A stretch of 64,000 nucleotides of DNA. Origin: Bacteroidia bacterium (GTDB taxonomy: Bacteria > Bacteroidota > Bacteroidia > Bacteroidales > GCA-2748055). The stretch lies in NCBI GenBank assembly GCA_030639005.1, contig DAOWDN010000164.1, positions 17,369 to 81,368 of the forward strand, given 5' to 3'. Positions within the stretch are counted from its first letter, which is position 1; each line of letters starts with the position of its first letter. This document shows positions 1 to 15,579 of this stretch, in pieces. The translations under genes and the position numbers were made by a program. A model generated the notes under the pieces. That model was not told the DNA's origin, did not search any database, and was given only the letters and a program-made list of their open reading frames with translations.

Positions 1-674
1 TCATCCTTAGAAAAGAACTCTAATTTTCTTGCGTTAAGGTTCACTATATAGTATGTTCCTCTGAAATAGTCAACACATTCTCCTTTATCATTTTTATATC
101 TAGGGATTTTCCCTATTATTAATTCGTAGTGTGTATCAGGTTTATTATCAAATTGAAGTTCTAAATTGACTAGTTTACCAATCGCATGTCCTAAAACCTG
201 ATTGTCTCTGAAGTACTTATGATAGTATCTATAGTAAACTGTCTCAAATTGTGTTTGTCTTAATCTGGCTTCTATATCTTCCCAGAATATCACTTGGAAA
301 GTAAAACTCTTTTCTTTTTTAAGTTCATTACTGATTTCTCTTTCAAATTTCTGAGTTTCAGAATCTCTGCTTAAAGTAGTGTACAAATAGTACTTTGAAA
401 GGGATGGATTAAACTCTTTAGCTTGATTTATTTCATAGTGTAACTCATCCTTTGTAAAAGATCGATTAGTAGACCTCACTTTGCATTGAATACCAATCCA
501 TTTATTTGATTCCAACTCTCTGGCATAAACATCAACACCATCTTGCTTCTGTCCAGGTCTACCGTGGACGTTAATATTTCCAAAAATATCTTCTGCTTCT
601 AGCATATCCTTGGCTAAATCCTCTAGCAAAATGTCATTTTCAATTTTTGGTATGTCAATAAATCTTAAATCCAT
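1..674 (-). CDS. Partial CDS (N-terminus in window, continues past position 1): Mrr-like PD-(D/E)xK restriction-endonuclease-domain protein
   Basis: Absent from the ORF track because it runs off the window. The minus-strand ATG is at 674-672 and the frame stays open to position 1. My translation begins MDLRFIDIPKIENDILLEDLAKDMLEAEDIFGNINVHGRPGQKQDGVDVYARELESNKWIGIQCKVRS. The DGVDVYA...IGIQCK pattern matches the Mrr-type D...(E/Q)xK nuclease core. It lies 66 bp downstream of the TIR gene on the same strand. Confidence 0.55.
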   Translation of the reverse strand, partial: MDLRFIDIPKIENDILLEDLAKDMLEAEDIFGNINVHGRPGQKQDGVDVYARELESNKWIGIQCKVRSTNRSFTKDELHYEINQAKEFNPSLSKYYLYTTLSRDSETQKFEREISNELKKEKSFTFQVIFWEDIEARLRQTQFETVYYRYYHKYFRDNQVLGHAIGKLVNLELQFDNKPDTHYELIIGKIPRYKNDKGECVDYFRGTYYIVNLNARKLEFFSKD

Positions 675-740
675 TTCGGGAAATATGATTACAAATAAAT
701 TGTATTAAAATGCTGCTATTTTGCATTGTTCTTTTAATTA

Positions 741-1823
741 TCAGTCATCTGCAGATTCCCAAGCTGAGAGAAAAATATTGAGCATAGCTGCTCCTTGGCT
801 TGTATAAACATTTGTAACTGTGAATGAAGATTTCGTTAGTCTTTTCGTACGTCCATCTTTATCAAATTGTATGGGTGTAAAAAGTACTGCATCATCAATT
901 AAAATGATTTCAAATGTTCTTTGTATATTATATTTCCTAAGATGACTATTGGGATTTAGCCCGTATTTTTCTAAAGTTGATATTGCTTTATTTATACAAT
1001 TATTCAATTGACAATCAAAGTCCTTATCTTGATGTGCGACATCAAGTATGTGTTTAGGAGCTGTAGGATTTAAAAAAAGACACCTGAAATCAAAACCATT
1101 CGAAGTTTTACTTTTTAGTTCTTCAAAGAACCACCAATGGTCTTTATCAAAAACCTTTCTATTCTTTCTTCCGAAAATGTACATCCTTTCCGAGGCATTG
1201 CTGAAGGCGGCTTCATATACCGCATGACTTTCAAAACCTTCACCAAAAGAAATAGTTTTACCTATTTCGGGTTCAGGTAGGCCACTTTTTTGTAATACAT
1301 CAATAACCTTTGGAAGTACTTTGGACGTATTTGTTAGTTTAACCGATCGTAGCTTTTCATCAAGTGATTTGTTAAAGTGGGCCCATTTCTCCTCAAACTC
1401 TTCCTTTAACAGGCCTTCTTCTCTCTTATATTCACCAAGTAAACCATTTAGTGATTTCATTAGTTCGTACATATCACTTTTCTCTACTGATGTAGATTGA
1501 TATTGTGAAAGAGGACCTTTTAAATCACGTTTATCCATACCAATTAAAACAGGACAAACTCTAGCCTCATCAACAACTTTTGAGATAGCCCCAGCCTCAA
1601 ATAAAAGCCATTGCGAATCTTGGTTTTCTGGAGTTAAGCATATTACTCCAATCATATCCTTAGACAGTCTAGTGCCTATTTCTTGATTCCATCTCAGACC
1701 TTTTTGAATTTCGATGGAAGACATCCAAGGTTTTAATGGATGCAGTAATCTTTTTACCAAATCGTAGAATAATTCTGCGAAAATTCTACTTCTTCGTCCT
1801 GACCAGCTAATGAATACTTCCAT
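741..1823 (-). CDS. TIR-domain protein fused to an uncharacterised ~190-aa C-terminal domain
   Basis: The N-terminus MEVFISWSGRRSRIFAELFYDLVKRLL...IGVICLTPENQDSQWLLFEAGA is the classic bacterial TIR (TIR_2-type) signature, including the W..FEAG glutamate position. It is followed by a coiled linker and a C-terminal alpha/beta-looking domain (MYIFGRKNRK...FEIILIDDAVLFTP) that I cannot assign. Confidence 0.75.
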   Translation of the reverse strand: MEVFISWSGRRSRIFAELFYDLVKRLLHPLKPWMSSIEIQKGLRWNQEIGTRLSKDMIGVICLTPENQDSQWLLFEAGAISKVVDEARVCPVLIGMDKRDLKGPLSQYQSTSVEKSDMYELMKSLNGLLGEYKREEGLLKEEFEEKWAHFNKSLDEKLRSVKLTNTSKVLPKVIDVLQKSGLPEPEIGKTISFGEGFESHAVYEAAFSNASERMYIFGRKNRKVFDKDHWWFFEELKSKTSNGFDFRCLFLNPTAPKHILDVAHQDKDFDCQLNNCINKAISTLEKYGLNPNSHLRKYNIQRTFEIILIDDAVLFTPIQFDKDGRTKRLTKSSFTVTNVYTSQGAAMLNIFLSAWESADD

Positions 1824-2046
1824 ATTCTACAAGTTATTGCTTATTTTCTATTCTTCAAGGCAGACAATCTAGAGTATAGAATTCTAACGGTATAATATAA
1901 TCTATTTGTAAAATGATGTTCTAATACAGTCACATAAATCGAGATTGATTCTAATATCGCCGCGCTTATTGATCTTAGATTTATCGTCCAATCGTCTAGG
2001 GCTTATTTGGGGCAAAAATATTTCTAGTATACTGAGCATTTGGCTA

Positions 2047-2544
2047 TCATTCATCTTTTAGAATTGGAATACCTGGAATAGTATCATATCTATAATGAGA
2101 CCTCTTCGTATTCTTTCTAATTTTTTCATTATTACAAATTATTCTAATCACAGGTGCTTCTTTTATATAAAACTCTAAGGTGCAAGGCGTATTTATGTCA
2201 TTCATCCAATACTCGATTGACATTTTTCGCTGCCGCTCCTTGTCTTTAGTATTGGAGATTTCAGTTAAAAGATCATAGTTGCCTTGATGCAGAATTTGAT
2301 CCGCTTCAACACTGACTTCGTAGAAAATAGAATTGGGATCGAGAATCCAGTATTTTTTGGCAGCATCAAAACTATTAAAAACCTTTACAACTTCATTGCG
2401 ATTTGGTTTGTCGATGGGCCTGTTATCCTCTAGAATATCTTCAATCTCAATACGTCTCGAATCACTATGGTTGTAAAATGAAGCTGAAGGTTTGATCAAT
2501 TCATTTAATTGGAAAATGCGCCTATCGATCCTATAGTACTTCAT
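2047..2544 (-). CDS. Hypothetical 165-aa protein located between the two TIR genes
   Basis: Clean ORF on the same strand, 58 bp downstream of the upstream TIR gene. I recognise no motif. Confidence 0.5.
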   Translation of the reverse strand: MKYYRIDRRIFQLNELIKPSASFYNHSDSRRIEIEDILEDNRPIDKPNRNEVVKVFNSFDAAKKYWILDPNSIFYEVSVEADQILHQGNYDLLTEISNTKDKERQRKMSIEYWMNDINTPCTLEFYIKEAPVIRIICNNEKIRKNTKRSHYRYDTIPGIPILKDE

Positions 2545-2602
2545 AAATATTTGTTTTCACATTTTAATACTCAAGTGTTTCATTCTATCCTCAAATTCTC
2601 TA

Positions 2603-3868
2603 TCATTTCATTTTCTCAATAAAATCGTATCCATCTTTAGTCATTCCAAATACGGTCCCATTTGTGCTTCTGTCACTAATAAAACCGTAATCGAGTAGTT
2701 GAAAAAGCGATGCCTCTAACTTAGCTCTTTCTCTAGGATCATTGTTGTCACTGAAAGATTTGCCATTCGTCACTAAATCATATCCATCTAATGTATCTGC
2801 TATCAGAAGAGAGCCGTTATTATCTTTATCTATTTCAGTAAGAATCTTTAATGTAATTCTGTCTAGACCGTGTGTTTTTCTAGCTTCAGACTCGTTATTC
2901 GTTTTAATGTATAAGACCTCCTTCTCTTTTACAATATTGACTATATCGTCAATATAATTTTGAGTTTTTGAAGCTGATGCTAATCTCACATTTAGTACCT
3001 CAGAAACTTCTTCGAGCATTTGATATATATCTGATTTTTGTTCTAGGTTGAAAAGATTTAGGTTATTAAGTGGCTTTTCAATTATCTCAATAACTGACTG
3101 TGAAGTTACAATTGGTATAAGTGGTTCATGTAATCCCCATCTAGCACCTAATTCAAATAGAACATAGTGAGATCGCAGGCTTGTCCTAGATATCAAACCA
3201 ATAAAGACCTTAGTATCGTGAATTTCTTTTCTTATTTGCTCATCTGTATTTACACCTCCTTTTAATTTGTGACCTTCTACAGATGTGCATCTTATCTTAT
3301 TAGGATCAATTCCCAATGAAATAATAAGCAGATCACATAGCTTGCTAGCAACTATTTTGTCAATCGAGCTATGACTAATGAACACATCCAATTCTTTGCT
3401 AATTGGTACTTGATCATTCATATTTGCTGAAGTTAAAGGTCTATCTTGTTCGCTTGGTTCTGAAAAAAGATTAATCAATAGTTCTTCAATATGCTCATTA
3501 AAATCAAGAACTAATAAGTAGTCTACATCATCAAAATAGTCTTCATTATCTGTTAAAAATTCACGAAGCTCTCTTAAGAAGGTAATTCTATCTTGCCTTA
3601 TTTCAGTCTGATGGAGTATAAAATCCTTTCTCTTCGTTTTACGAATTGAAGTGATTTTTTCTGCAAACTTTTTGTAATAGCAATTCCTACATACAGAAGT
3701 ATTATTAATAGCTGGATTATTATTGGAAATCTTACACTGCTTTCTTGCATTAAATGTGATATTGTAATTGAAAGGTTTATCTGATGGCTCACTGAAATCC
3801 TCTCTAAGTTCCAGGATCTCTTCAGTAAATTTAAAATCATCAGCAAGAGTTGATATTATATCTTTCAT
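2603..3868 (-). CDS. Three-part protein: Cys-containing N-terminal region, central TIR domain and a C-terminal winged-helix-like domain
   Basis: The central segment LDVFISHSSIDKIVASKLCDLLI...VFIGLISRTSLRSHYVLFELGARWG matches the bacterial TIR_2 pattern. The N-terminus contains CKISNN...CRNCYYKKF. The C-terminal ~90 aa (ITLKILTEIDKDNNGSLLIADT...GFISDRS) looks wHTH-like, but that assignment is weak. Confidence 0.7.
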   Translation of the reverse strand: MKDIISTLADDFKFTEEILELREDFSEPSDKPFNYNITFNARKQCKISNNNPAINNTSVCRNCYYKKFAEKITSIRKTKRKDFILHQTEIRQDRITFLRELREFLTDNEDYFDDVDYLLVLDFNEHIEELLINLFSEPSEQDRPLTSANMNDQVPISKELDVFISHSSIDKIVASKLCDLLIISLGIDPNKIRCTSVEGHKLKGGVNTDEQIRKEIHDTKVFIGLISRTSLRSHYVLFELGARWGLHEPLIPIVTSQSVIEIIEKPLNNLNLFNLEQKSDIYQMLEEVSEVLNVRLASASKTQNYIDDIVNIVKEKEVLYIKTNNESEARKTHGLDRITLKILTEIDKDNNGSLLIADTLDGYDLVTNGKSFSDNNDPRERAKLEASLFQLLDYGFISDRSTNGTVFGMTKDGYDFIEKMK

Positions 3869-3983
3869 CAGTATAGAAGTTCGAAATAAGACTCAGATCA
3901 TATCAAATAGTATTTTCATTCCAGTCCCAAATGTGATAAGTCATTTTAATTAACACAAAGTTAGCTCATTGCGGCATTCTTCT

Positions 3984-4001
3984 AATTGTTATATAACAAT
4001 T
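3984..4001. promoter_or_regulatory. Perfect 18-bp palindrome aattgttatataacaatt; candidate operator
   Basis: Read directly from the sequence: aattgttat is the reverse complement of ataacaatt. It lies in the 191-bp gap between the PH-domain gene stop (4060) and the TIR gene start (3868). Confidence 0.3.
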
Positions 4002-4059
4002 GATAGACAAACATGAATACCTTTAGAAGCTATTGAGATTACATTAATCCAACACTACA

Positions 4060-4434
4060 CTACTTTACTTTTTCACTCATTAGTTCTCCAATCTCTTTGA
4101 TATCAATTCTACTACCAAATTTAATCTCGAAAACTCCCACACCTGAAATCCAAATTTTAAAATCACTATCAAAGTCAAAAGTCCCTGCTGTTTCCACTGA
4201 GAAAGATGAAATCTTAGAATACGGAAAGAATCTAAACTCTTTCTTTTTGCCAGTTAAACCTTGAATGTCAATAGCTATTAGCCTTCTGTCAGTAAAGATT
4301 ACTCTATCTCTAGCGTGTTTGTAGGATAGTATCACTTGCTCATTATCTGAAAGGTAGACTTCGTATAGCTCTTTTCCATCACTGGAATCAACTTTATCAA
4401 CAACACTAAATTTTGCTAATAGGTCTATGGCCAT
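4060..4434 (-). CDS. Bacterial PH-domain (YokE-like) protein
   Basis: 124 aa. The core VIFTDRRLIAIDIQGLTGKKKEFRFFPYSKISSFSVE is typical of bPH/YokE-like domains. Confidence 0.55.
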   Translation of the reverse strand: MAIDLLAKFSVVDKVDSSDGKELYEVYLSDNEQVILSYKHARDRVIFTDRRLIAIDIQGLTGKKKEFRFFPYSKISSFSVETAGTFDFDSDFKIWISGVGVFEIKFGSRIDIKEIGELMSEKVK

Positions 4435-5009
4435 AATTCTGGAATTTATTGTCCTAAGTTGTTTTTTATAGAGGTTTCATTCTGGGTACAAATGCTTCTT
4501 CACGTGGTATTAGGTTGTAATGCAATCAATTACAAAAGAATAGGCTTAGCGAGTGACAAATAGAGGACACCATTGAGCATTTTGTATGCCCAAGCAGTTA
4601 AAAACAGGATATCCACGTGGAATTCTTGTTGGGTTGTGCTAAAGACCATTCTTTCAGTAATAGAGGGTTTTCAATGGCTCAGGCTAATTTAAATTATCTT
4701 CAAACAAAATCCAATTAATACTTTCAACTACGAATAGGGGAACGTCTTATTTACACAAGCCCAGGATTGGATTTGCTCTTAGCTCCCCAACCCCCAATAT
4801 TGTCTATCATATAGTCCCCCTATGCCGTTATTTAGGATTTGAAAATGTGGCCTCTTTAATACGCGCGTAAAAGTGGTCCCAGTTTTAGAGGCACATGGTA
4901 TCATTTATCAAAGTGATTTGCTATAAAAAATGGGATACAAGTTCTATGGTTCAAGGTCTGTGGTTGGAATGATTGTTGCTCCTTCTTTCATAAGCAAGAT
5001 TATTGAAGT

Positions 5010-5396
5010 ATGGTATCAATTAAGTTTAAGCATATCGTTATTGGTTTATTGATCATTTTCATTCTTTCTCTGTTTCATCGGAAGGGCAATGAGGATTATT
5101 CATATGGGCAATCCGGTACCAAGATCCCTAATCCCATCCCAATACAATCATTCGATCGTTCGATGGATTGGGAACAGGACTATCCTCCATCCTCAACATG
5201 GTCCTACAATCCTACATTCCCCACAAGGCATGAACTTCTCCAAACCAAAGTGAAGGGATATCGTGAAGAAACCTATTGGGGAGAACACACCTCAACAGCT
5301 GAAAAGGTCAGGTATATGGATGACGATGAATTTAAAGACTATTTAGAGGAAGTGGAATTAAATGATGCCGATGTATACTGGGGTGCAGAATACTAA
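5010..5396 (+). CDS. Hypothetical membrane-anchored protein
   Basis: 128-aa ORF with an N-terminal hydrophobic helix (IVIGLLIIFILSLF). No recognisable domain. Confidence 0.4.
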   Translation: MVSIKFKHIVIGLLIIFILSLFHRKGNEDYSYGQSGTKIPNPIPIQSFDRSMDWEQDYPPSSTWSYNPTFPTRHELLQTKVKGYREETYWGEHTSTAEKVRYMDDDEFKDYLEEVELNDADVYWGAEY

Positions 5397-5508
5397 TATG
5401 TTGAAGAATAGGATGCTATTTGAAGCTGCTTTCAAGCAGTCTAGTAAGCTATTGGAGTAGTTGATATATGGTTTATTAGTTTGATATACTAGCCGCAAAT
5501 ATTAAGCT

Positions 5509-5607
5509 TTAGTAAACCCGCTTGTACCTTTCGAAAACCCCATCCTTATCAGCGATAACTAGAGATCCATTGTTATCGACATAATGATAATCTGTATAGT
5601 CATTTAC
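5509..5607 (-). pseudogene. Orphaned 3' end (about 32 codons plus TAA at 5511-5509) of the gene split by the IS66 insertion
   Basis: If the IS and one copy of the target duplication are removed, the minus-strand frame of ORF 8226..8735 continues ...KLVN-DYTDYHYVDNNGSLVIADKDGVFERYKRVY-stop across this segment. I translated this by hand. Confidence 0.6.
5600..5607 (+). repeat. Left copy of the 8-bp target-site duplication tcatttac
   Basis: Identical to 8230-8237 and directly abuts the left terminal inverted repeat. An 8-bp duplication is the IS66-family hallmark. Confidence 0.85.
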
Positions 5608-5628
5608 GTAAGCCTGCGGCCTAGTACA
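5608..5628 (+). repeat. IS66 left terminal inverted repeat
   Basis: gtaagcctgcggcctagtaca compared with the reverse complement of the right end, gtaagcatacggtctggtaca. Confidence 0.8.
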
Positions 5629-5672
5629 TCTTGCGGTGGTGGCCGTTCCTAACTATCTTCCTCACAAAAAAT

Positions 5673-6017
5673 ATGTTGAGTCAAACCAAGTTCCTGGAGC
5701 TATACCAGCAGCAGCAAGAATCCGGATTAACCGTACGAGACTTTTGTTCGAATGAGGGCATTGCCCCATCTACTTTTTACTACTGGCAGAAAAAAGTCAA
5801 GAAGAATAATACAGTTCGTAATTTCATTCCCCTTTTAGTTGATCCTCCTCAGCCAATCGCCCCACAGAGTTATGTCAAGAGCCATGCCCCTGTCCCTGGC
5901 AGGGGGAACATCGATGATGCATTATTGGAGCTGGTGTATCCAAACGGTACCAAACTTCGGATCAGGCAGGACCTGGACCTTGCCCACCTGCGAACCCTTG
6001 TCTGCCTTATTGACTGA
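5673..6017 (+). CDS. tnpA: IS66 accessory protein TnpA (HTH)
   Basis: MLSQTKFLELYQQQQESGLTVRDFCSNEGIAPSTFYYWQKKV is a transposase-type HTH. I prefer the ATG at 5673 to the alternative start at 5631 given in the ORF track. Confidence 0.75.
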   Translation: MLSQTKFLELYQQQQESGLTVRDFCSNEGIAPSTFYYWQKKVKKNNTVRNFIPLLVDPPQPIAPQSYVKSHAPVPGRGNIDDALLELVYPNGTKLRIRQDLDLAHLRTLVCLID

Positions 6018-6021
6018 TCGT

Positions 6022-6363
6022 ATGTTCCATCTCCACCGATCCCTTCAATACTACCTGTATCCTTTGCCGGTAGATATGCGCAAGAGTTTTTATACCCTGA
6101 GCGGTGTTGTAAATGAGTCGATGAACCAGGATGTTCGTGGTGGTGGGGTATTCATTTTCATTAACCGCCGTCAGAACATCATGAAGATCCTTCACATGGA
6201 ATATGCCGGTATGGTGATCTATCACAAGAAGCTGGAGTCGGGCCGCTTTAGGCTCCCGGCTTTTGACGAGAATACTTCCTCTTTGGACATGGACTGGAAC
6301 GACTTGATGATGATGGTTGAGAGCGTGAAACTTCGACCTGACAAACTCAAAAAAAGAAGCTAA
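6022..6363 (+). CDS. tnpB: IS66 Orf2 / TnpB accessory protein
   Basis: MFHLHRSLQYYLYPLPVDMRKSFYTLSGVV...VFIFINRRQNIMKILHMEYAGMVIYHKKLESGRFRLP is the conserved IS66 Orf2 sequence. The ATG at 6022 lies 4 nt after the tnpA stop. Confidence 0.85.
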   Translation: MFHLHRSLQYYLYPLPVDMRKSFYTLSGVVNESMNQDVRGGGVFIFINRRQNIMKILHMEYAGMVIYHKKLESGRFRLPAFDENTSSLDMDWNDLMMMVESVKLRPDKLKKRS

Positions 6364-6459
6364 CATATCGCCTATAAATGTTGATAATGCGGGCAATTTT
6401 TCCAAGGAAAATCTAGCGTATTTTGCTATCTTCAACCCCGTAATGTACAAGCATTTGCG

Positions 6460-8166
6460 GTGGATAAACAACGAGACAAAGACAGCTTAATAGAGGCCCT
6501 TTTACAGGAGCGTGACGAGCTGTATCTGGAGCTGTCCAGGTTGCGTGAAATCGACAATGGTGCATTGAAAAAAGCGGAGGCTGTTCTAAAGAAGAAAGAC
6601 GAGAAGATAAAGCAGCAGGATGAGCAGATTAAACGCAAAGAAAAGCAGGTCACGTACCAGGAAGACAAGATTAAACAGCTGACCGATCAATTAGCCTGGT
6701 ACCGGCGCAAGTTCTGGAAGCCCACCAGTGAGAAGTACCTCCCCCAGGATCCCAACCAACGCACCATCGACTTTGATGGCCTGGAGGTATTGCCGGAGGA
6801 GGAAGAGGCCATCAAGGAAGCTGCCAGAGAAATCATCTCCTATGAACGCCAGAAGCCAGCGAAAGCTAAGAGGCAGCCTGTTCGTCAACCTATACCTGAC
6901 CATCTTCGCCGGGAAGAAGAGACCATCGAACCTGAGGATATTGATGAGAACTGGGAGCGTATCGGAGAAGAGGTTACTGAAATCCTGGAGCATAAACCAG
7001 GAGAGTTATACGTTCGTAGGATCGTTCGTCCCAAATATGTGCTGAAAAATGCTTCTTCGAAGCAGGTAGAGGATATTGAAGAGTCTGCAGATAAGATCAG
7101 GATCGGTTCATTACCACTGTTGCCACTACCCAGAAGCAATGCCGGGCCAAGTTTGCTGGCAGAGCTTCTGATCAATAAATACATGCACCACCTGCCTTTC
7201 CACCGGCAACTGGCCATGTTCAAACAATCCGGGATATCACTACCTGCCTCTACGGTCAATGGCTGGTTCAAGGGCAGTAGTGATTTACTCCGGGCATTGT
7301 ATGACAGGTTAAAAGAAATCGTACTGGCCACAGATTACATCCAGGTTGATGAGAGTACAGTACCGGTGATTGATAATAAGAAGCATCGGACGGTCAAGGC
7401 CTACTTATGGGTGGTGCGTTCTGTCATGGATAAGCTTCTGTTCTTCCATTATGACCAGGGCTCACGGGCCCAGAAGGTAGTGATTGAATTACTTCGTGAT
7501 TACCAGGGCGCTGTTCAAACGGATGGATATGAGGCCTATTCTATCTATGAGCGTAAGAAAGGTGTTTTGCTGCTGGGCTGCTGGGCGCATGCCAGACGCA
7601 AGTTTACAGAGGCATTAAAAGAAGATAAGGCCGGTGCTGAATACGCCCTGGAGCAAATCGGTATGATCTATAAGGTCGAGGACATGGCCACTGATCAGGA
7701 ACTGGACCATGAGCAGCGGGCAGAGCTTCGTAAGAAACTGGCCTATCCAGTACTCTGTGCTTTTGAAAAGTGGGTAGTGCAGTATTATCCGAAGGTGTTA
7801 CCCAAAGGAAGAATGGGCAAGGCATTGAGTTATACCTACTCTATTTTCCACCGTTTATCCAGATATCATCTGGATGGTCGATACCTGATGGATAACAATG
7901 GGGTCGAGAATGCCATCCGCCCCCTGGCTATCGGCAGAAAGAACTATATGTTCTGTGGAAATCATGATGCGGCAGAAAACGCTGCTATTATGTACTCCCT
8001 ACTGGGATCCTGCAAGGCCTGTAATGTAAATCCCAGGGAATGGCTCGTCGATGTACTGGCTCGGATCCCGGAATACAATAACGATTACTCTATGGATCTG
8101 GCTGATCTCCTACCTCACCGTTGGAAAACTTCCAGAGAACTCCAAGAAACTACTACTGAGTTGTAG
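6460..8166 (+). CDS. tnpC: IS66-family DDE transposase
   Basis: 568 aa with a coiled-coil N-terminus and the IS66 motifs HHLPFHRQ, YLWV, QTDGYEAY and CWAHARRKF. It uses a GTG start. Confidence 0.95.
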   Translation: MDKQRDKDSLIEALLQERDELYLELSRLREIDNGALKKAEAVLKKKDEKIKQQDEQIKRKEKQVTYQEDKIKQLTDQLAWYRRKFWKPTSEKYLPQDPNQRTIDFDGLEVLPEEEEAIKEAAREIISYERQKPAKAKRQPVRQPIPDHLRREEETIEPEDIDENWERIGEEVTEILEHKPGELYVRRIVRPKYVLKNASSKQVEDIEESADKIRIGSLPLLPLPRSNAGPSLLAELLINKYMHHLPFHRQLAMFKQSGISLPASTVNGWFKGSSDLLRALYDRLKEIVLATDYIQVDESTVPVIDNKKHRTVKAYLWVVRSVMDKLLFFHYDQGSRAQKVVIELLRDYQGAVQTDGYEAYSIYERKKGVLLLGCWAHARRKFTEALKEDKAGAEYALEQIGMIYKVEDMATDQELDHEQRAELRKKLAYPVLCAFEKWVVQYYPKVLPKGRMGKALSYTYSIFHRLSRYHLDGRYLMDNNGVENAIRPLAIGRKNYMFCGNHDAAENAAIMYSLLGSCKACNVNPREWLVDVLARIPEYNNDYSMDLADLLPHRWKTSRELQETTTEL

Positions 8167-8208
8167 AAATCTCTAAACAGTTTTGGAATTGGTTGGAAAA
8201 AGTGGGAG

Positions 8209-8229
8209 TGTACCAGACCGTATGCTTAC
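8209..8229 (-). repeat. IS66 right terminal inverted repeat
   Basis: See the left inverted repeat; 17 of 21 positions match. Confidence 0.8.
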
Positions 8230-8735
8230 TCATTTACTAGCTTAACTCCGGGCTCAAGGTTGGTCGGATTCTGAAACATATCTAAAATATAGACAGTTCT
8301 CTCATTCCTTTGCTCTACTAATAATTCGTAACCTTCACTCATCTTCAATTTACCACCAGCACTATTCGAATAATAATAGGTGTTTCCAGAAGTGTAAATT
8401 GCAATGAGAGCCTCAGGTTCTTCCTCCCAAATTCCAATTAATTGGTCAGGATTCAATTGGTCTTTTATCCTTTGAATTTCTTCGTCTGTGAGCCCATTTT
8501 TCTTTCTATTACCTGCTTGAGTTCTATTTGGGCTTCTAAGATCATTTGATTGTGTTTGAGAAGGCTTTTCTTGACTTGTTGAGTTTATAAGGCCAGTTAT
8601 ATCGGCTATTGCATATAATGAGCAGAACGCTAATGCAACAATAAATATCCATTGAATGAACTGGTCTGATGGATTTTCTTTTTTGCTCATCATTCTTTTG
8701 TTATTGATGGGATTCTTGCAGATAAATATAACCAA
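8226..8735 (-). pseudogene. 5' portion of a membrane-anchored hypothetical gene truncated by IS66
   Basis: The current stop codon (TAA, 8228-8226) lies inside the IS right inverted repeat, and the native frame resumes at 5607. The likely start is MSKKENPSDQ..., followed by a TM helix IQWIFIVALAFCSLYAI. Confidence 0.6.
8230..8237 (+). repeat. Right copy of the 8-bp target-site duplication tcatttac
   Basis: Identical to 5600-5607. Confidence 0.85.
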
Positions 8736-8803
8736 TAATTCAGACTATAGTCCGTGGACACAGGATGTTATTCTAGGTTCCTTTACTGTAGACTATTGTC
8801 CGA

Positions 8804-9031
8804 ATGGAGCTTATTCAGGTTTTCGGTATAACATTGAGCCAGTTGCGGAAGGAAGCTGGTTTGACTCAGGAAAAGTTAGCCGAGTTAGCTGGGTATGACC
8901 GGACATATATTTCACTTATTGAAAGGGGTCTTCGCAAACCGACAGTTCAGGCTCTATTCAATCTTTCAAAGCCCCTGGGGATCTCTCCTCACCAATTCAT
9001 CAAGTTTGTAGAAGAAGAATTATCTGAATGA
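8804..9031 (+). CDS. XRE-family HTH transcriptional regulator
   Basis: ITLSQLRKEAGLTQEKLAELAGYDRTYISLIERGLRKPTVQALFNLSKPLG is a canonical HTH_3 sequence. Confidence 0.82.
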   Translation: MELIQVFGITLSQLRKEAGLTQEKLAELAGYDRTYISLIERGLRKPTVQALFNLSKPLGISPHQFIKFVEEELSE

Positions 9032-9490
9032 TATGTCGAACACTTGAACTACAATAGAAAATGCAGCTAAGAATCCGGAGATTACTATGGCTGCAATTGC
9101 TATTTTATGGGCTTGTCTACTAAAAATCCTAGCTTCCTTCAATTCGAGATAATCGTATAAACTGAATAATTGTTCGGCCTGCAGAAAGCCACCTGATGAA
9201 TCATGCCTATTTGTTTGCATTCCAAGCTCCGATTGTACCTTGCCAGTTTTTACTTGATATGCGTATTGCGCCCACTGTGGGTTATAAAAGGTTAAATAGA
9301 ACCACTCCTTGAATTGAAATACGTTGTCCCCTTTAGTATAATAGCCGGTTTCCTCAAGATGCTTTATCATATCCTGAAAGCTGATCCCTTCTTTGATTCT
9401 TTCTTCTCCATATTGCAGGGCTGCTATATAGATATTAGATCGTCCTGATCGGGATTTCCTTTTCCTTAATGAGGGTTTTCTTGAAGTCAT
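9020..9490 (-). CDS. Hypothetical protein with a C-terminal TM helix
   Basis: 156-aa ORF that converges on the XRE gene and overlaps it by 12 nt. The C-terminus IAIAAIVISGFLAAFSIVVQVF is hydrophobic. Confidence 0.4.
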   Translation of the reverse strand: MTSRKPSLRKRKSRSGRSNIYIAALQYGEERIKEGISFQDMIKHLEETGYYTKGDNVFQFKEWFYLTFYNPQWAQYAYQVKTGKVQSELGMQTNRHDSSGGFLQAEQLFSLYDYLELKEARIFSRQAHKIAIAAIVISGFLAAFSIVVQVFDISFR

Positions 9491-9726
9491 AACTCTGAAG
9501 ATTTATCTATCCATAAATGTAGCTGTTCTTCTTTTGTTTCCAATACTTAATAAGCGCATAGGGGGAGCTATTGATTTTGAAAAACCAAGCGCCTTAATCG
9601 TGCATTACCAGTATAGCAGTGAAAAAGGCACTTGGTATGAATGGGAATCGCTGAATTGAAATAAAAAAAGGGATACAAAAAAGATTCTCCATTTTGCAAC
9701 AATTAGATAATCCATGCTAATTGGAA

Positions 9727-10041
9727 TTATTTCATTTTTTTTAGCTCTGGAATTCTAACTTTTAATTTATATCCAATTGGATATGCCGCCTCCCAAGTAC
9801 CTTTATCTGTATAAAGGAAAAACTCCAAATCGTTTTTTCCAGAGGCTTTAATTACTCCGAAACAGAAATATATTCCATATGTATTTTCAAGCATTTTTAG
9901 CTGGTCATGCAAATAATGCACAGGATTAGACCTATGTGTTATTACTGATCCGATTTTATATAGTGAACTCATGATATAAGAATTTAAGTGAATAAATAAT
10001 TCAGTTGAATATTCCAGCTTAATTGCTTCTCGGAGGCCCAC
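9727..10041 (-). CDS. Hypothetical protein
   Basis: ORF on the same strand as the neighbouring element genes. The start is uncertain, and an internal ATG would give MSSLYKIG.... Confidence 0.35.
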   Translation of the reverse strand: MGLREAIKLEYSTELFIHLNSYIMSSLYKIGSVITHRSNPVHYLHDQLKMLENTYGIYFCFGVIKASGKNDLEFFLYTDKGTWEAAYPIGYKLKVRIPELKKMK

Positions 10042-10106
10042 GGATCTGATCGGGATAACAAAAAGAATGTGCAGTGTTTTTCATAACGTCTAATACTTCA
10101 TATGAT

Positions 10107-11093
10107 TCATATTAAAATGCCGTATAATGCTTCTAATTTGCTTTCTAGTTCACTTATAATGCTCGTACTATGCAACTCATTACTTTGACTTACTAGCTCC
10201 CTCACGCTCCGCTTATATTGACTCCGGGTTACACTTGGATTTTTGACATCATACTCCTGAGAATCTATCAGATTGTACATCTCATTCAAGCCATATTCTC
10301 TAAGGCCGATCATGGCCAGGAAATCCTTAACCCAGCCCCTCCCAGAAACAAAAGAATTTGAAGGAATATCGAACTCAACGATATTCACGGTATTCAATTC
10401 TTTAGCTAAATGATCTATTAGACGTTGGAATGTGTCAGGAGAGTATAGGTCTGTGAACCTAAGTTCTTTTCCAAGGATAGGTTTTTCACTGTACTTCTTA
10501 ATCTTGACCTCGAAACGCAGAATATTCAGGTGCTTGATGAATTCAGGAAGGGCTTTGAAGGCTTCTCGGGATTTCATATCCTTCTTCATCTCTTTCAACT
10601 TATCATAGAAAGTGACTCCTTGGTAGTCAGTCTTAATTCGGAAATCCACTGTCTGGCCTTGATGAAGGACCCGCTGTCTTCTGGGATAGCCCTGTATGGC
10701 CTGTATGTAATTCGCTACCGGCCGTTTAACCACGAAATTAAATCCAAAGTCTAACCTAGTAATCTTCAGATTATCCAAGGGGACTTCAATAATGTCGGAT
10801 AAGGTGTCAAGGACCAGATGGACATCTGATGGTGTACAGGATGCTATATTGTTTCCATATAGGAATTTCGGGATGCTTCCTTCAATGGAAATTTGCTTGG
10901 CAACTTCATTGTGTAGGGGATAGCGGATGGAGACTTTGAAGTTTTTTATCATGCCTTTGAGGTACCCAGTTTGGGATTCCAGATTTTGTTGAATTTTGGG
11001 ATTCTCAATCCTGGGAGTAAGACTGGATATCGGGATTAGGTCAAGGTCTGGGATTGGTGTCAGGTCTAGGTATCCTCTGATTGTGTCTATCAT
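10107..11093 (-). CDS. Putative replication-initiation protein (phage/plasmid gene II/X-like)
   Basis: 328 aa. The N-terminal MIDTIRGYLDL... and the overall size resemble gpII/CRI-type rolling-circle Rep proteins often found with integrases in Bacteroidota elements. This is recognition only, with no catalytic motif verified. Confidence 0.35.
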   Translation of the reverse strand: MIDTIRGYLDLTPIPDLDLIPISSLTPRIENPKIQQNLESQTGYLKGMIKNFKVSIRYPLHNEVAKQISIEGSIPKFLYGNNIASCTPSDVHLVLDTLSDIIEVPLDNLKITRLDFGFNFVVKRPVANYIQAIQGYPRRQRVLHQGQTVDFRIKTDYQGVTFYDKLKEMKKDMKSREAFKALPEFIKHLNILRFEVKIKKYSEKPILGKELRFTDLYSPDTFQRLIDHLAKELNTVNIVEFDIPSNSFVSGRGWVKDFLAMIGLREYGLNEMYNLIDSQEYDVKNPSVTRSQYKRSVRELVSQSNELHSTSIISELESKLEALYGILI

Positions 11094-11143
11094 GATTTCT
11101 TCCTTTTATTATTGAACTTTAATAATTAGATACTCTTATTAAA

Positions 11144-11545
11144 TCATTGCATATGAGTGCTTGATCTAAGCTTTAGGATAAAGGGCCTGAAATATCCAGA
11201 CTGGAATAATTGTATTAGGATTGGAGCATACTGGCGAACACCTTTAATAATAAGAACTCGTGCTTTTTTGTTTTTGAGCAGGGTCCGAACAAGTATTATA
11301 TCATTCGTACCTTGAATTTGTGCAACTCCAAATTTCTCATTCAGTGGAATCTCTATTGTACATTTATCTGATAGACAAAGTCTACAGCAGAATCTGTGGT
11401 CCTTCATTGAATAGTTAAGTTCAAGGAATATATTGTGAGGGGGAACAACTTGGCAACCTTTATCGGTTGCTAATACTAACTGATATGAGATTTGGCTATT
11501 TGTCCTCGAAATAGACTTAAACTCATAGTATTGATCGATTTCCAT
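11144..11545 (-). CDS. Hypothetical protein
   Basis: 133-aa ORF in the same-strand gene array. Confidence 0.4.
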   Translation of the reverse strand: MEIDQYYEFKSISRTNSQISYQLVLATDKGCQVVPPHNIFLELNYSMKDHRFCCRLCLSDKCTIEIPLNEKFGVAQIQGTNDIILVRTLLKNKKARVLIIKGVRQYAPILIQLFQSGYFRPFILKLRSSTHMQ

Positions 11546-11619
11546 TGTCCGTGTATTAGTGATTTACACGAACAAAGAAACCTCATAAGGCACAGTGAAT
11601 CAATTGGTAGAGATTAATA

Positions 11620-12027
11620 TTAACTTAATTTAATCTCTCCTAAGCCCTTAACAATTTCTATAATTTCGGAGATGTTTTGTTTATCAAGATTTGATCTTAC
11701 TACACTTAAATTCTCGGGTTTAAAATCTTTGTTCTCCTTAGTAATGAAGTGAGAAGCAATCCGAACTAAATAGTTTTTCGAATATGAGTTGGGGACAATC
11801 CCGTTTGAAATCATTAATGAGAACAATCCAACAATTTTATCCTGTGTACCGAGCCATTGAATTTTACTCGGCTGAGTATCTCTTTCAGTGAAATGCAATA
11901 TGAATTCATCAAATAGACAATCTATCAATGTAAGGGAGGTTAGTTGCTCAAACAGGTTAGTCGTAATCGCTAATTTCTGTTCATCATTTCCAATAATATG
12001 AATGAAATCGCTTTTATCTCTTTTCAC
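11620..12027 (-). CDS. Hypothetical protein
   Basis: 135-aa ORF that overlaps the upstream ORF by 4 nt, a pattern typical of translational coupling. Confidence 0.5.
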   Translation of the reverse strand: MKRDKSDFIHIIGNDEQKLAITTNLFEQLTSLTLIDCLFDEFILHFTERDTQPSKIQWLGTQDKIVGLFSLMISNGIVPNSYSKNYLVRIASHFITKENKDFKPENLSVVRSNLDKQNISEIIEIVKGLGEIKLS

Positions 12028-12395
12028 GAATTCAATATCTGAATATCTGAATATCCAAATCCCAAATCATTATATATTTTATTTGGATCGTAGTGTTTAT
12101 TCTCTGTAATACCTTTATCTGCAATCATTTTAATCTTGATACACTCTTTCAGTAATTCATCAAACTTATCTTTTGGAAGATCTTCCTGTAACTCTATCAG
12201 ATCATCAATAATATACTTGATCTCTGATGATATATCCTGCCAATACAAATACCAATCATCTTCAGCGATCAAGTATTCGACCTGTCCACATTCAAGAATA
12301 TCAATGGAAACAAATTCGATAAATGAGTTTTGAATATCCTCGATTGCACGCCGACGTTGTTTATCAATTAATGATTGATATTTAGAAACATCCAT
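12024..12395 (-). CDS. Hypothetical acidic protein
   Basis: 123-aa ORF, 31 nt downstream of the integrase and overlapping the next ORF by 4 nt. Confidence 0.5.
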   Translation of the reverse strand: MDVSKYQSLIDKQRRRAIEDIQNSFIEFVSIDILECGQVEYLIAEDDWYLYWQDISSEIKYIIDDLIELQEDLPKDKFDELLKECIKIKMIADKGITENKHYDPNKIYNDLGFGYSDIQILNS

Positions 12396-12426
12396 ACCAG
12401 ATAGGATTAAGGTGCGAATAAAGCTA

Positions 12427-13509
12427 TTAAATATTAGGGAGATTGTCTACAGCTGACACTTTAGAAGTATCAATCACCTTTGCATAGATCTGTGTGGATT
12501 TAATATCCCGGTGCCCTAGGAGTTCTTTTACAGTCATCAAATTTGCACCATTAGCAAGAAGCATTACTGCATAAGTATGACGAGCGCAATGGAATGTGAT
12601 TTTTTTGCTGATTTTAGCTGCTTCTAGCAACTTTTGGAGTAGTCTCCTTATGTGCACTACATTAAATTGCAAATTGAATACTAGAGCATCTTTTGGGGGT
12701 CTATCCCCGATAAGTTTTAAGGCCGTTTCATTAAGTGGGATATGATTAATGTTCCCAGTCTTGGCTTGCCTCTTATGAATAGCAAATGATTTCCCATTCC
12801 CATTAAAATCTACTTCTTGGATTTGGCTCCATTTCAGTGTTGAGATATCCCCATACCTCAACCCAGTAAAACAAGAAAATAAAAAAGCACGTTGAACTAC
12901 ATCATGATGGAAATCCACATCATTGATCCTTTGAATCTCTTCAATAGTAAGATACCCCCTACTAGACTCTGGGACACGTATAGGATCAACAAAGAATGAA
13001 GGATTTTGAATAAGGATTTTATCCTTGACACTTTCACTTAAAGCGCATTTTACTTTAGCAAAATACGTTGAGGTTGAGGAGGGGGATACCTTAGTGTGCA
13101 AGTAATCAATAAATTCCTCTAACCATTCCCGGTCAATCTCTGTGAATAGTGCTGTCCCGTTGCAAAAGGATTGTAGATGTGTGTAGGTATTTTTCCAAGC
13201 CGTTTTTGAATTCCCTTCTCTCTTATTCAACTGTTTCTCAAAGTAAGCAATGAAGTTTTGGTTTAACTTTTCTTTGGTTGGGAATCCATAGGCCTCGTTG
13301 GCTAACTCCATCATCCGCTTGGCCTTGATATTCTCGGCCAATTTCAACTTCTCATTTCTGTAAGTCTTGTCATCGTATGGTTCAAGGTAGATGCCAAGGA
13401 ACTCCCTTTTGCGTTTTCCCTTGCGATAATAAATGTCCAAATACAGGCTATACCTGGGTTTCGTGTTTCCCTTGGATCGGATCTGGCGTTTCCTGAGATG
13501 TACTTTCAT
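12427..13509 (-). CDS. Tyrosine site-specific recombinase / integrase
   Basis: 360 aa. It has the Bacteroidota-type N-terminus (RYSLYLDIYYRKGKRKREFLGIYL) and a C-terminal catalytic region with LRYGDISTL, HCARHTYAVMLL and LLGHRDIKSTQIYAKV (the R..H..R..Y set). Confidence 0.93.
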   Translation of the reverse strand: MKVHLRKRQIRSKGNTKPRYSLYLDIYYRKGKRKREFLGIYLEPYDDKTYRNEKLKLAENIKAKRMMELANEAYGFPTKEKLNQNFIAYFEKQLNKREGNSKTAWKNTYTHLQSFCNGTALFTEIDREWLEEFIDYLHTKVSPSSTSTYFAKVKCALSESVKDKILIQNPSFFVDPIRVPESSRGYLTIEEIQRINDVDFHHDVVQRAFLFSCFTGLRYGDISTLKWSQIQEVDFNGNGKSFAIHKRQAKTGNINHIPLNETALKLIGDRPPKDALVFNLQFNVVHIRRLLQKLLEAAKISKKITFHCARHTYAVMLLANGANLMTVKELLGHRDIKSTQIYAKVIDTSKVSAVDNLPNI

Positions 13510-13729: not shown

Positions 13730-13841
13730 TTTGACATACGGTTTACTCGTAAACCTCGTGTCGGGATTGCCCAAGACCTGTTATGGTTATTCAGATTCAT
13801 ATTGACGATTGTCATATGGTTTAATCTCAACAGTTCTGTTC
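13730..13841 (+). repeat. Copy 1 of a perfect 112-bp direct repeat
   Basis: Aligned by hand and identical at 112 of 112 positions to 14093-14204. The flanking bases differ on both sides. Confidence 0.95.
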
Positions 13842-14092: not shown

Positions 14093-14204
14093 TTTGACAT
14101 ACGGTTTACTCGTAAACCTCGTGTCGGGATTGCCCAAGACCTGTTATGGTTATTCAGATTCATATTGACGATTGTCATATGGTTTAATCTCAACAGTTCT
14201 GTTC
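14093..14204 (+). repeat. Copy 2 of a perfect 112-bp direct repeat, ending 31 nt before the RT ORF
   Basis: Identical to 13730-13841, with an offset of 363 bp. Confidence 0.95.
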
Positions 14205-14235: not shown

Positions 14236-15579
14236 GTGGTCGATTATTCTAGGGGGATTACATATAGAAAACCATTCATGACAGCATCTCTTCTTGCAAA
14301 GATTTCCTCAACAGAAGCATTACACAATGCATGGAATAAGCTCAACAAACACAATCCAAATTCATGCGGTCTGTCTCGTGAAACAATAAATGAGTTCCAT
14401 AAGAATCTGAATTCCAGGATTCAATCATTAAGTTCAAATCTGCAGGAAGGGTCTTTTAAATTTCGTCCAACAAAGGCTGTTGTAATTCCCAAGGACAAGA
14501 ATAAGTTTAGGCCATTGCAAGTTCCAGAAGTCTCTGATAGGATTGTACTTAAAAGTATGGCCATAGAATTGGAACAAATATTCGAAGAAAGGCTGAAGGT
14601 TAGCAGAGATGTTAGTTTTGCATATCAAAAAGGAGTTGGTATTCGTGATGCAATGAGGCAGATTGATGTGCTGCATAAGATGGGCAGGTGTTTTGTCCTT
14701 GAAGCAGATATAGTGAATTTCTTTGGTGAAGTTGACAAGGAAAAACTTCTTAAACAGCATTTATTTCCATCATTACCTGATTCAAGCATTAATGATCTGA
14801 TTCAAAGTGGGCTTAATCAATCTGTAGGAGGTACTAAAATACTATCTAAAGACCAGAAGAAACTATTTTCTAATGTTGGAAATGGGATCCCACAAGGAAA
14901 TTCATTGTCACCGTTATTGTCTAATATCTATCTAGCTCCTTTTGATGATTATCTTAAAAGTAGAAAGCTAGGACTAGTCAGGTATGCAGATGATTTTATT
15001 GTAATGTGTGATTCTATGGATCAGGCTCTGGAATCATATGACCTTTGTAAAAACTTTCTGAATAATGAGCTTGGTTTAAAAATATATAGCATAGAGGATG
15101 GCTCAAAGACAAAGGTCATAGACCTTGGTAATGGTGTCCTAAACTTTCTTTCAATCGAATTCAATGGGTCGGAGTTTTATCCTTCTATTGAGAATTTTGA
15201 GAGATTCAAAAATAAGGTCAGGAACATCTGTAATAATCCAAATGCTCAAGCTGATATACTGACTACAATCACAAAAATTAGGAATGCACTTGATGGATGG
15301 TTGTCAGCCTATTTTTATACAGGGGTCGATAGGTATTTGGAGGAACTTGATTTTTATATCAATCGTCAGTTATATTTAAATTTGAGAGCCTTTGGTTTTG
15401 TGTTAAGTAGGAATTCTACAAGCAAGATTCCATATAAATATAGGGTGCCTAACGTTAGTAGTCATTGTCTGTCAAAGGTCCAGAGAGCCAATTCAGGAAT
15501 ACCAATTTCTAAAGATTTAGTAAAATCCAAAAGAGAAATGGCTATTGATGAATCGGATATAGAAGAGATAGATTTGTGA
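14236..15579 (+). CDS. Reverse transcriptase, group-II-intron-like / defence-associated, with no additional enzymatic domain
   Basis: RT motifs are FRPLQVPEVSDRIVLK, VLEADIVNFFGEV, GIPQGNSLSPLLSNIYL and LVRYADDFIVMC, with a thumb/maturase-like KIRNALDGWLSAYFYTG. The track start is a GTG at 14236, and the first ATG at 14278 (MTASLLAK...) is an equally plausible start. Confidence 0.9.
   Translation: MVDYSRGITYRKPFMTASLLAKISSTEALHNAWNKLNKHNPNSCGLSRETINEFHKNLNSRIQSLSSNLQEGSFKFRPTKAVVIPKDKNKFRPLQVPEVSDRIVLKSMAIELEQIFEERLKVSRDVSFAYQKGVGIRDAMRQIDVLHKMGRCFVLEADIVNFFGEVDKEKLLKQHLFPSLPDSSINDLIQSGLNQSVGGTKILSKDQKKLFSNVGNGIPQGNSLSPLLSNIYLAPFDDYLKSRKLGLVRYADDFIVMCDSMDQALESYDLCKNFLNNELGLKIYSIEDGSKTKVIDLGNGVLNFLSIEFNGSEFYPSIENFERFKNKVRNICNNPNAQADILTTITKIRNALDGWLSAYFYTGVDRYLEELDFYINRQLYLNLRAFGFVLSRNSTSKIPYKYRVPNVSSHCLSKVQRANSGIPISKDLVKSKREMAIDESDIEEIDL

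Follow-up and report, generated by a model that had tools for sequence, protein, structure and literature searches.

Candidate single-gene TIR modules and an ADP-ribosyltransferase-like protein at the cargo end of a putative integrative island in a Bacteroidales genome

The left end of a 64,000-nucleotide stretch of a Bacteroidales genome (contig DAOWDN010000164.1, positions 17,369 to 81,368; the whole stretch is referred to here as the window) carries five genes on the minus strand, which a first-pass annotation, made from the sequence alone, had read as one possible novel multi-gene defence system built around two TIR-domain proteins. In transcription order, these genes encode a bPH protein (4060-4434, 124 amino acids, aa), the TIR protein TIR_A (2603-3868, 421 aa), a protein of 165 aa designated unk165 (2047-2544), a second TIR protein, TIR_B (741-1823, 360 aa), and Mrr288, of which the window holds the N-terminal 224 of 288 codons (1-674), the remainder lying to the left of position 1. 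The five open reading frames (ORFs), the frame left open from 674 to the left edge and the two wider gaps of the cluster, of 191 bp between the bPH and TIR_A genes (3869-4059) and of 223 bp between the unk165 and TIR_B genes (1824-2046), were all as first described; the two other gaps measured 58 nt (TIR_A to unk165) and 66 nt (TIR_B to Mrr288). The AT-richness reported for the region was likewise confirmed, the GC content being 0.327 for positions 1-4000 versus 0.45-0.51 from 16 kb onward. A near-identical metagenomic contig from another assembly (L001) matched window positions 1-5140 with 3 mismatches over 5140 nt and extended the sequence 703 nt leftward, revealing the complete Mrr288 gene (L001 4467-5333) followed by a 79-aa ORF.

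Whether the five genes belong together was judged from about 100 related loci (105 loci, 1.48 Mb), fetched through relatives of TIR_B, TIR_A, unk165 and Mrr288. The TIR_B genome scan, run on one genome per species, returned 80 loci, of which 11 held clear full-length relatives and 2 held full-length relatives at ~30% identity, the other 67 sharing the TIR domain only. When the window proteins were compared by BLASTP with the ORFs of these 80 loci, of L001 and of another near-identical contig, L002, matches were obtained only in L001 and L002, and an all-against-all clustering of the neighbours within 6 kb in the 13 full-length TIR_B loci and L001 revealed no shared family. Among the three closer lineages of TIR_B relatives, the one at 76% identity (L087-89) was flanked by an integrase and an AraC regulator, that at 73% (L083) lay amid housekeeping genes, beside GIY-YIG-like and restriction-endonuclease-like ORFs, and that at 67% (L084-86) was found between a radical-SAM gene and polyphosphate kinase; the other four genes of the cluster were absent from all three. 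TIR_A relatives were solitary in three lineages, and unk165 relatives occurred in four different contexts, none of them with a TIR gene. Relatives of Mrr288, examined in two lineages, had as neighbours either DUF2310 and a transposase or, in a stretch of Flavobacterium DNA, a DUF4011 helicase together with a GIY-YIG gene, again with no TIR gene nearby. HMM profiles of three families, run over all 105 loci, each matched their own loci only. A second member of the five-gene set was thus found in none of the ~100 related loci, by BLAST or by profile search: the gene combination is not conserved, and each family is autonomous elsewhere. The reading of the cluster as one novel multi-gene TIR system fails because its genes do not co-occur in other genomes, the outcome set beforehand as speaking against it, and after this result such a system is not worth pursuing.

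Similar-sized gene pairs downstream of the TIR_B relatives in L003, L005 and L010 were considered as a conserved pair and rejected, the proteins being unrelated; the L010 pair turned out to be pgk and tpiA. Some of the ORFs beside TIR_B relatives looked defence-like by reading only, namely nucleotidyltransferase-like and TIM-barrel ORFs in L003 (11353-13148), TcmP-like and DUF5131-like ORFs in L005 (11198-13007) and the GIY-YIG-like and restriction-endonuclease-like ORFs of L083 (9249-11626), none of them being common to different loci.

The presence of two TIR domains was upheld by Pfam, TIR_2 scoring above the gathering cut-off of 28 bits in both proteins (35.6 and 32.5 bits), and the motifs singled out in the first-pass annotation, FIS(W/H)S and (F/L)E(A/L)G, were present and invariant in the family alignments (FISHSS and E239 in TIR_A, FISWSG and E76 in TIR_B). 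TIR_A consists of an N-terminal region (~1-150) in which C45, C60 and C63 are nearly invariant, an SpbK-like TIR domain (~160-296) and an optional C-terminal module of ~100 aa. Besides TIR_2 (1.5e-8), it matched the PADLOC spbK model (6.2e-17) and the structure of SpbK in the PDB (9phb, 2.4e-7), with only weak ThsB matches in the PADLOC scan (best 2.7e-5). FISHSS (163-168), Y235xxxE239 (within FELGA), G241 and W244 were invariant in the TIR_A family alignment. In the alignment with 9phb, FISHSS (with S167/S168), Y235, E239, G241 and W244 fell on S121/S122, Y188, E192, G194 and W197 of SpbK, residues implicated in binding of nicotinamide adenine dinucleotide (NAD) and in TIR self-association through the BE interface (PMC12847820). 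Residues 1-91 showed no similarity to SpbK, the matches to the PADLOC model and to the PDB entry beginning at residues 92 and 144, respectively. The C-terminal module was found in 6 of 12 relatives and was absent from five of 313-326 aa (alignment A4), while one relative keeps this module without the N-terminal domain. No profile matched the module, and the label of winged helix-turn-helix-like (wHTH-like) initially attached to it is tentative. Judged from these comparisons, TIR_A appears to be a variant of the SpbK type whose N-terminal domain probably differs.

SpbK, a single-gene TIR abortive-infection NADase of the Bacillus subtilis element ICEBs1, resembles TIR_A in having an N-terminal non-TIR domain followed by the TIR domain; both are located on a mobile element, and the relatives of TIR_A stand alone. 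The two proteins differ in that the N-terminal 150 residues of TIR_A, with their C45/C60/C63 motif, showed no similarity to the four-helix bundle of SpbK, residues 1-94, and in the extra ~100-aa C-terminal module of TIR_A. SpbK senses the SPbeta portal protein YonE, and docking to the phage portal clip is a feature of the SpbK four-helix bundle. SpbK is a one-gene system activated through its non-TIR domain, and it makes N1-cADPR, a cyclic ADP-ribose (cADPR) whose receptor is unknown (PMC12847820).

In TIR_B, the TIR domain (~1-130) is followed by a long helix (136-160) and a C-terminal domain (~190-360). Its TIR motifs, FISWSG (4-9) and W72xxxE76 (within FEAGA), were invariant in the family alignment, and its homologues formed 186 clusters, nearly all full length at ~360 aa, spanning Bacteroidota, Acidobacteriota, Verrucomicrobiota, Campylobacterota and Chloroflexota. 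Residues 1-162 aligned with positions 1-162 of the PADLOC model PDLC03016, named 'TIR-TM' (4e-49), but this profile has 293 positions, of which TIR_B covers 55%, short of a full-length match; the likeness lies in the TIR domain only, TIR_B having a PLD-like domain where the C-terminal part of the model would be, and no transmembrane or hydrophobic segment was predicted in it. The AlphaFold2 (AF2) model, with a mean predicted local distance difference test score (pLDDT) of 87.7, comprised the TIR domain, the helix 136-160 and an alpha/beta domain. Foldseek matched the model to TIR structures, the best being SPARTA TIR-APAZ/short pAgo (2e-6, TIR domain only), and the C-terminal part to TrmBL2 (5bpd, 7.5e-6), PLD3, vaccinia F13 and the phosphatidylserine synthase PssA. 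Conserved in this C-terminal part were the motifs GFESH, IFGRKNRKxFDK (with GRKNRK at 218-223), FDFRCLFLDP, R302, DDAVLF and LTK (alignment A1), the invariant residues being E198, R213, G218, R219, K220, N221, K223, R302, D310 and T330. The C-terminal 170 residues fold like the PLD superfamily and the C-terminal region of TrmBL2 (TrmB family), from which they differ in lacking the HKD motif: neither an invariant His nor an HxK(x)4D(x)6GSxN motif was found in alignment A1, and what is left is a vestigial strand-loop motif, R302-x7-D310, followed by hydrophobic residues. Because the HKD motif and the invariant His are lacking, the domain is predicted to be non-catalytic, with a ligand-binding or dimerisation role, and is taken to be a degenerate PLD-like lobe with a conserved basic patch.

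TIR domains of the TIR_B type (34-47% identity) were found in 67 further species-representative genome loci (L014-L082, e.g. L025, L023, L059, L051 and L050), joined there to a wide variety of C-terminal domains, 110-270 aa long and unrelated to one another, the hosts including two archaeal Methanothrix-type metagenome-assembled genomes. By reading of the sequences, the fused domains included sigma-70 region 4-like, histidine-kinase ATPase-like, Tudor-like, wHTH-like and another PLD-like domain. In proteins that have this TIR and a length of 260-284 aa, the match to the 'TIR-TM' profile covered 190-250 positions (up to 3e-79), and in 2 of 5 loci checked, TIR_B-type genes lay near Lamassu LmuB or Cas1. 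This fusion of one TIR subtype to many C-terminal domains supports a sensor role of the C-terminal part of TIR_B, and the sequences of the FISWSG-type TIR clade suggest a family built as 'constant effector, variable sensor'. PADLOC covers this clade by one model only (TIR-TM). Literature searches for 'TIR-TM' and 'TIR-PLD' returned nothing relevant, and the system behind PDLC03016 was not identified; no description of the TIR-PLD-like architecture was found in the searchable literature, a negative of little weight. We would give slightly less than even odds to the tentative proposal that the TIR-helix-PLD-like family represents an anti-phage NADase, autonomous and so far undescribed, within a FISWSG-type clade of 'one effector, many sensors'.

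The small protein unk165 had no match in Pfam, NCBIfam or PADLOC, Pfam being empty also for 31 relatives, and its profile found nothing among the PDB sequences, so that fold comparison alone gave a match. The AF2 model (pLDDT 95.8; predicted template modelling score, pTM, 0.88) had as its best Foldseek hit in the PDB BC2332 (2aua; 2.6e-5, TM 0.61), followed more weakly by RES toxins, Arr and TreTu, whereas in BFVD three uncharacterised phage proteins were retrieved and then, weakly, Tpt1 and DarT. We take BC2332 (2AUA) to represent Pfam DUF2441 structurally. DUF2441 is a family of the Pfam clan of ADP-ribosyltransferases (ART) (PMC7955679). In the unk165 family (128 clusters at 50% identity, alignment A2), E124, R49, Y112, W113, E35 and F56 were invariant and position 6 was R, or H in some members; in the model, E124 lies on strand 123-127, the fifth, and R6/H on strand 2-7, the first. 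As modelled, these residues would fit an active enzyme of the ART type, and unk165 is predicted to be a stand-alone protein whose fold is ADP-ribosyltransferase/RES-like (BC2332/DUF2441-like). The ART clan (DUF2441/BC2332, RES toxins, Arr) is marked by a split beta-sheet fold and a catalytic triad of R/H on strand 1, an aromatic residue or Ser on strand 2 and Glu on strand 5; the unk165 model superposes on BC2332 and, more weakly, on the toxins and Arr, and its strand-5 Glu and strand-1 R/H are candidate counterparts of two of the triad residues. It differs in having no reproducible Pfam match at the sequence level and no adjacent Xre-type antitoxin gene. A precomputed Pfam table gave DUF2441 for one relative (P0370, L105 1957-2430); this assignment was not reproduced by hmmscan even at E=10, a version difference or a filter effect. 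No relatives were found in a viral-contig scan, and a metagenome scan gave one locus. Two parts of the cluster that had at first been left as unknown, unk165 and the C-terminal domain of TIR_B, can thus be assigned to an ADP-ribosyltransferase-like fold and a degenerate PLD-like fold, respectively.

The Mrr-like call made for Mrr288 was weak on the single sequence. The query itself matched Mrr_cat_2 below the cut-off (E=9e-4, 19.6 bits; cut-off 22), but in the family, comprising ~90 full-length homologues of ~288 aa at 37-74% identity, some of them with a precomputed PF13156 match, D48, Q63 and K65 were invariant and C64 nearly invariant (25 homologues). With this motif, Mrr288 is classed as a putative Mrr-type D...QxK PD-(D/E)xK nuclease. 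It shares D48...Q63-C-K65 with the Mrr/Mrr_cat_2 type IV restriction nucleases and differs from Mrr in that the nuclease domain is itself N-terminal, no Mrr-type DNA-binding N-terminal domain being recognisable; a conserved C-terminal domain of ~150 aa without assignment follows. The bPH call was borne out by Pfam (PF08000 bPH_1, E=1.6e-36; bPH_3, 7.8e-6), with no PADLOC match for this protein.

The ORF list contains one more frame within the cluster, a 50-aa ORF on the minus strand (1902-2054) with an 8-nt overlap with the stop of unk165. It was considered as a coupled antitoxin and rejected, no relative being present in the fetched loci beyond identical contigs; it was skipped by the gene caller on L001, has no Pfam match and is probably not a gene. 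A promoter and terminator scan of positions 1-5600 was uninformative, promoter-like sites being rarer than in shuffled sequence, and the Bacteroidota TAnnTTTG motif gave just two isolated matches in the gaps, at distances of 87 and 189 nt to the following start codon. An NCBIfam scan of the window proteins yielded nothing useful.

The cluster lies within a stretch of low GC content (~0.33 in the cluster and 0.36-0.375 for 8-16 kb, versus ~0.49 in core genes). Core genes set in at ~16.6 kb; they encode a class II aminoacyl-tRNA synthetase (16604-18589, minus strand) as well as RecJ, HPRT, Adk, Obg, LplA, AroK and a topoisomerase A subunit. The 3' part of the synthetase gene contains the right copy of an exact 71-nt direct repeat resembling an att core (17010-17080, minus strand). 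By blastn, L001 5436-5506 was identical to window 17080-17010 at 71 of 71 positions, after which the sequences diverged (85% over 162 nt), which places the second copy ~295-365 nt to the left of window position 1, beyond Mrr288. The 79-aa ORF found there shared 75% identity with the C-terminal segment of the synthetase, for which 17071-16835 codes. An exact direct repeat together with a 3' gene end that has been duplicated and has diverged is what integration into the 3' part of a gene classically leaves behind, and the combination seen here indicates an integrated island of ~17.4 kb with att-like ends; it implies that the island carries its own replacement 3' end for the synthetase gene. Neither tRNA nor Rfam scans of the whole window gave matches, so that the insertion site is not a tRNA gene. 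The TIR, ART and Mrr genes appear to be cargo at the island end distal to the integrase.

The integrase in question is a tyrosine integrase (12427-13509, minus strand; Phage_integrase 1.6e-21, Phage_int_SAM_5, Arm-DNA-bind_5), and the Arm-DNA-bind_5 and SAM_5 domains are typical of integrases of Bacteroidota mobile elements. The island backbone (8804-13509) further holds a Phage_CRI-like replication initiator, Rep (10107-11093, minus strand; PF05144, 5.9e-8), an XRE-type helix-turn-helix (HTH) ORF recognised by reading only (8804-9031) and several small ORFs without assignment. Just upstream of the cluster is an IS66-family element on the plus strand (5631-8166), made up of a TnpA-like HTH ORF (5631-6017; HTH_Tnp_1, 9e-5), an orf2-like ORF inside 5839-6363, by reading only, and a DDE transposase (6460-8166; DDE_Tnp_IS66 2.9e-85, LZ_Tnp_IS66 and DDE_Tnp_IS66_C). 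A 30-nt imperfect inverted repeat (4815-4844 and 9537-9566, 83% complementary) brackets a 4.7-kb segment that includes this element. L001 stops at window position 5140, perhaps because its assembly broke at this repeat. To the right of the integrase the island carries a reverse transcriptase (14236-15579, RVT_1/GIIM), with no group II intron match by Rfam anywhere in the window. The interval between these two genes contains two 112-nt direct repeats, 100% identical and 363 nt apart (13730-13841 and 14093-14204), which could be a template/variable pair of the retroelement, a tandem duplication or an assembly artefact.

None of the partner modules of known TIR systems was found in the cluster: as first noted, no ThsA, SLOG, Macro, cyclase, STING or Argonaute partner occurs among the five proteins. 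Thoeris shares with the TIR proteins described here a TIR domain with the catalytic Glu, whereas their relatives are solitary genes; neither the ThsA model nor SIR2, SLOG or Macro was matched among the five proteins in PADLOC and Pfam, and TIR_B had no ThsB match. The locus is not Thoeris, because ThsA is absent, nor is it CBASS or Pycsar, because neither a cyclase nor a SAVED, STING or cyclic-nucleotide-monophosphate-binding (cNMP-binding) sensor is present among the five proteins; a cyclase was likewise not matched in the four TIR_B-type loci whose directly adjoining genes were scanned. The resemblance of TIR_B to SPARTA runs through the TIR domain (~156 columns, root-mean-square deviation (rmsd) 3.7), full-length alignments giving an rmsd >20 A; no Argonaute-like ORF was present in 1-9000 and no APAZ domain in TIR_B. 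A SPARTA-like reading of TIR_B was rejected, since the fold match was confined to the TIR domain.

From the observed domains and folds, the conserved catalytic residues, the autonomy of the families and the island context, we consider it likely (probability about 0.75) that positions 1-4434 hold five independent modules instead of one system and form the cargo end, distal to the integrase, of an integrative island of ~17.4 kb gained by horizontal transfer. As the relatives always stand alone elsewhere, the genes are best treated as separate candidate single-gene defence modules, which would have gathered next to one another in the manner of a defence island; the general defence flavour of the first-pass annotation survives in this form. 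As regards enzymatic activities, triggers and an anti-phage role, we infer the following. TIR_A would be a single-protein abortive-infection NADase of the SpbK type, whose Cys-containing N-terminal sensor would bind an oligomeric phage component; binding would cluster the TIR domains into an active head-to-tail assembly and NAD+ would be destroyed, by the mechanism described for SpbK (PMC12847820). TIR_B may follow the same scheme with another sensor, a helix and a single PLD-like lobe that is probably dimerising and whose basic pocket (R219, K220, N221, K223, R302) might bind a phosphate-bearing ligand, e.g. a nucleic acid or nucleotide. The small ART-fold enzyme unk165 would use NAD+ for ADP-ribosylating a target, or hydrolyse it as RES toxins do, Mrr288 would act as a D-QxK PD-(D/E)xK nuclease with a C-terminal domain of its own, and the bPH protein may have an accessory or unrelated role.

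Several points weigh against this interpretation. The five genes share one strand and two of the gaps are short (58 and 66 nt), and co-transcription and a lineage-specific cooperation of the genes are conceivable. Three NAD-using enzymes in a row are suggestive, though common in defence islands. The left att copy was seen on L001 only and not in the window, and sampling was thin, with three lineages for TIR_A, two for Mrr288 and four for unk165, many of the metagenomic contigs being short. The 'defence' label draws on homology and island context. A single multi-gene system in which one TIR protein signals and the other TIR protein, the ART-fold protein or the nuclease executes would agree with the common strand, compact arrangement and common low GC of the genes, with the presence of three NAD-utilising folds and a nuclease, and with the fact that the SpbK product, N1-cADPR, has no known receptor while the basic pocket of TIR_B could bind a nucleotide. 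We regard it as very unlikely, since it is largely refuted by the missing co-occurrence: no gene pair was repeated in the ~100 related loci by BLAST or profile search, the neighbours are wholly different even for a TIR_B relative at 76% identity, and no partner module known from Thoeris, CBASS or Pycsar is present. A more elaborate and highly improbable version would be an NAD-centred cascade of a new kind, in which SpbK-like TIR_A would respond to infection by producing a nucleotide of the cADPR type. Either the degenerate PLD-like pocket of TIR_B would read this nucleotide, in a relay from one TIR protein to the other, or the ART-fold protein would make use of it, and the Mrr-type nuclease would serve as a second executioner.

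The gap sizes, 58 and 66 nt within the pairs versus 191 and 223 nt elsewhere, would also suit two lineage-specific operons, TIR_A with unk165 and TIR_B with Mrr288, each joining an NADase to a second effector or modulator (e.g. an ART regulating or backing up the TIR protein), and paired effectors are known in defence systems. Such an arrangement is unlikely, as no unk165-like gene accompanies the TIR_A relatives and no Mrr288-like gene the TIR_B relatives, and relatives of Mrr288 and unk165 have no TIR neighbours; the promoter and terminator scans did not inform on it. It may also be asked whether the genes act against phage at all, or are toxin-like or addiction cargo, or inter-bacterial conflict genes stabilising the island, or serve NAD/ADP-ribose metabolism. 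ART/RES-fold proteins and TIR NADases are also toxins (compare the RES-Xre and TreTu matches), the cluster sits on an integrative element and the exact families have no experimental validation; set against this are the specific matches to defence models (SpbK, TIR-TM), the proximity of TIR_B-type relatives to Lamassu and CRISPR loci, and the coupling of one TIR to many C-terminal domains, which would resemble the sensor diversification of phage-sensing proteins. Nor were secretion signals, a polymorphic-toxin architecture or evident cognate antitoxin genes found, and we consider a role outside phage defence improbable.

The reading of the region as the cargo end of an integrative island with independent modules shifts the interest from the cluster as a whole to its single genes. 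The TIR-helix-degenerate-PLD proteins form a widespread, unnamed family (186 clusters) encoded by a solitary gene, in a clade that swaps C-terminal domains freely, and this makes the TIR_B family a possible model for the sensing of infection by single-protein TIR NADases, of which SpbK is an example. With unk165 comes a small and confidently modelled ART-fold family (128 clusters) that no Pfam model currently detects. The novelty would thus lie in single-protein TIR NADases with new sensor domains and in an unannotated ART-fold family, modules that are ferried by a cleanly delimited island of ~17 kb in an aminoacyl-tRNA synthetase gene.

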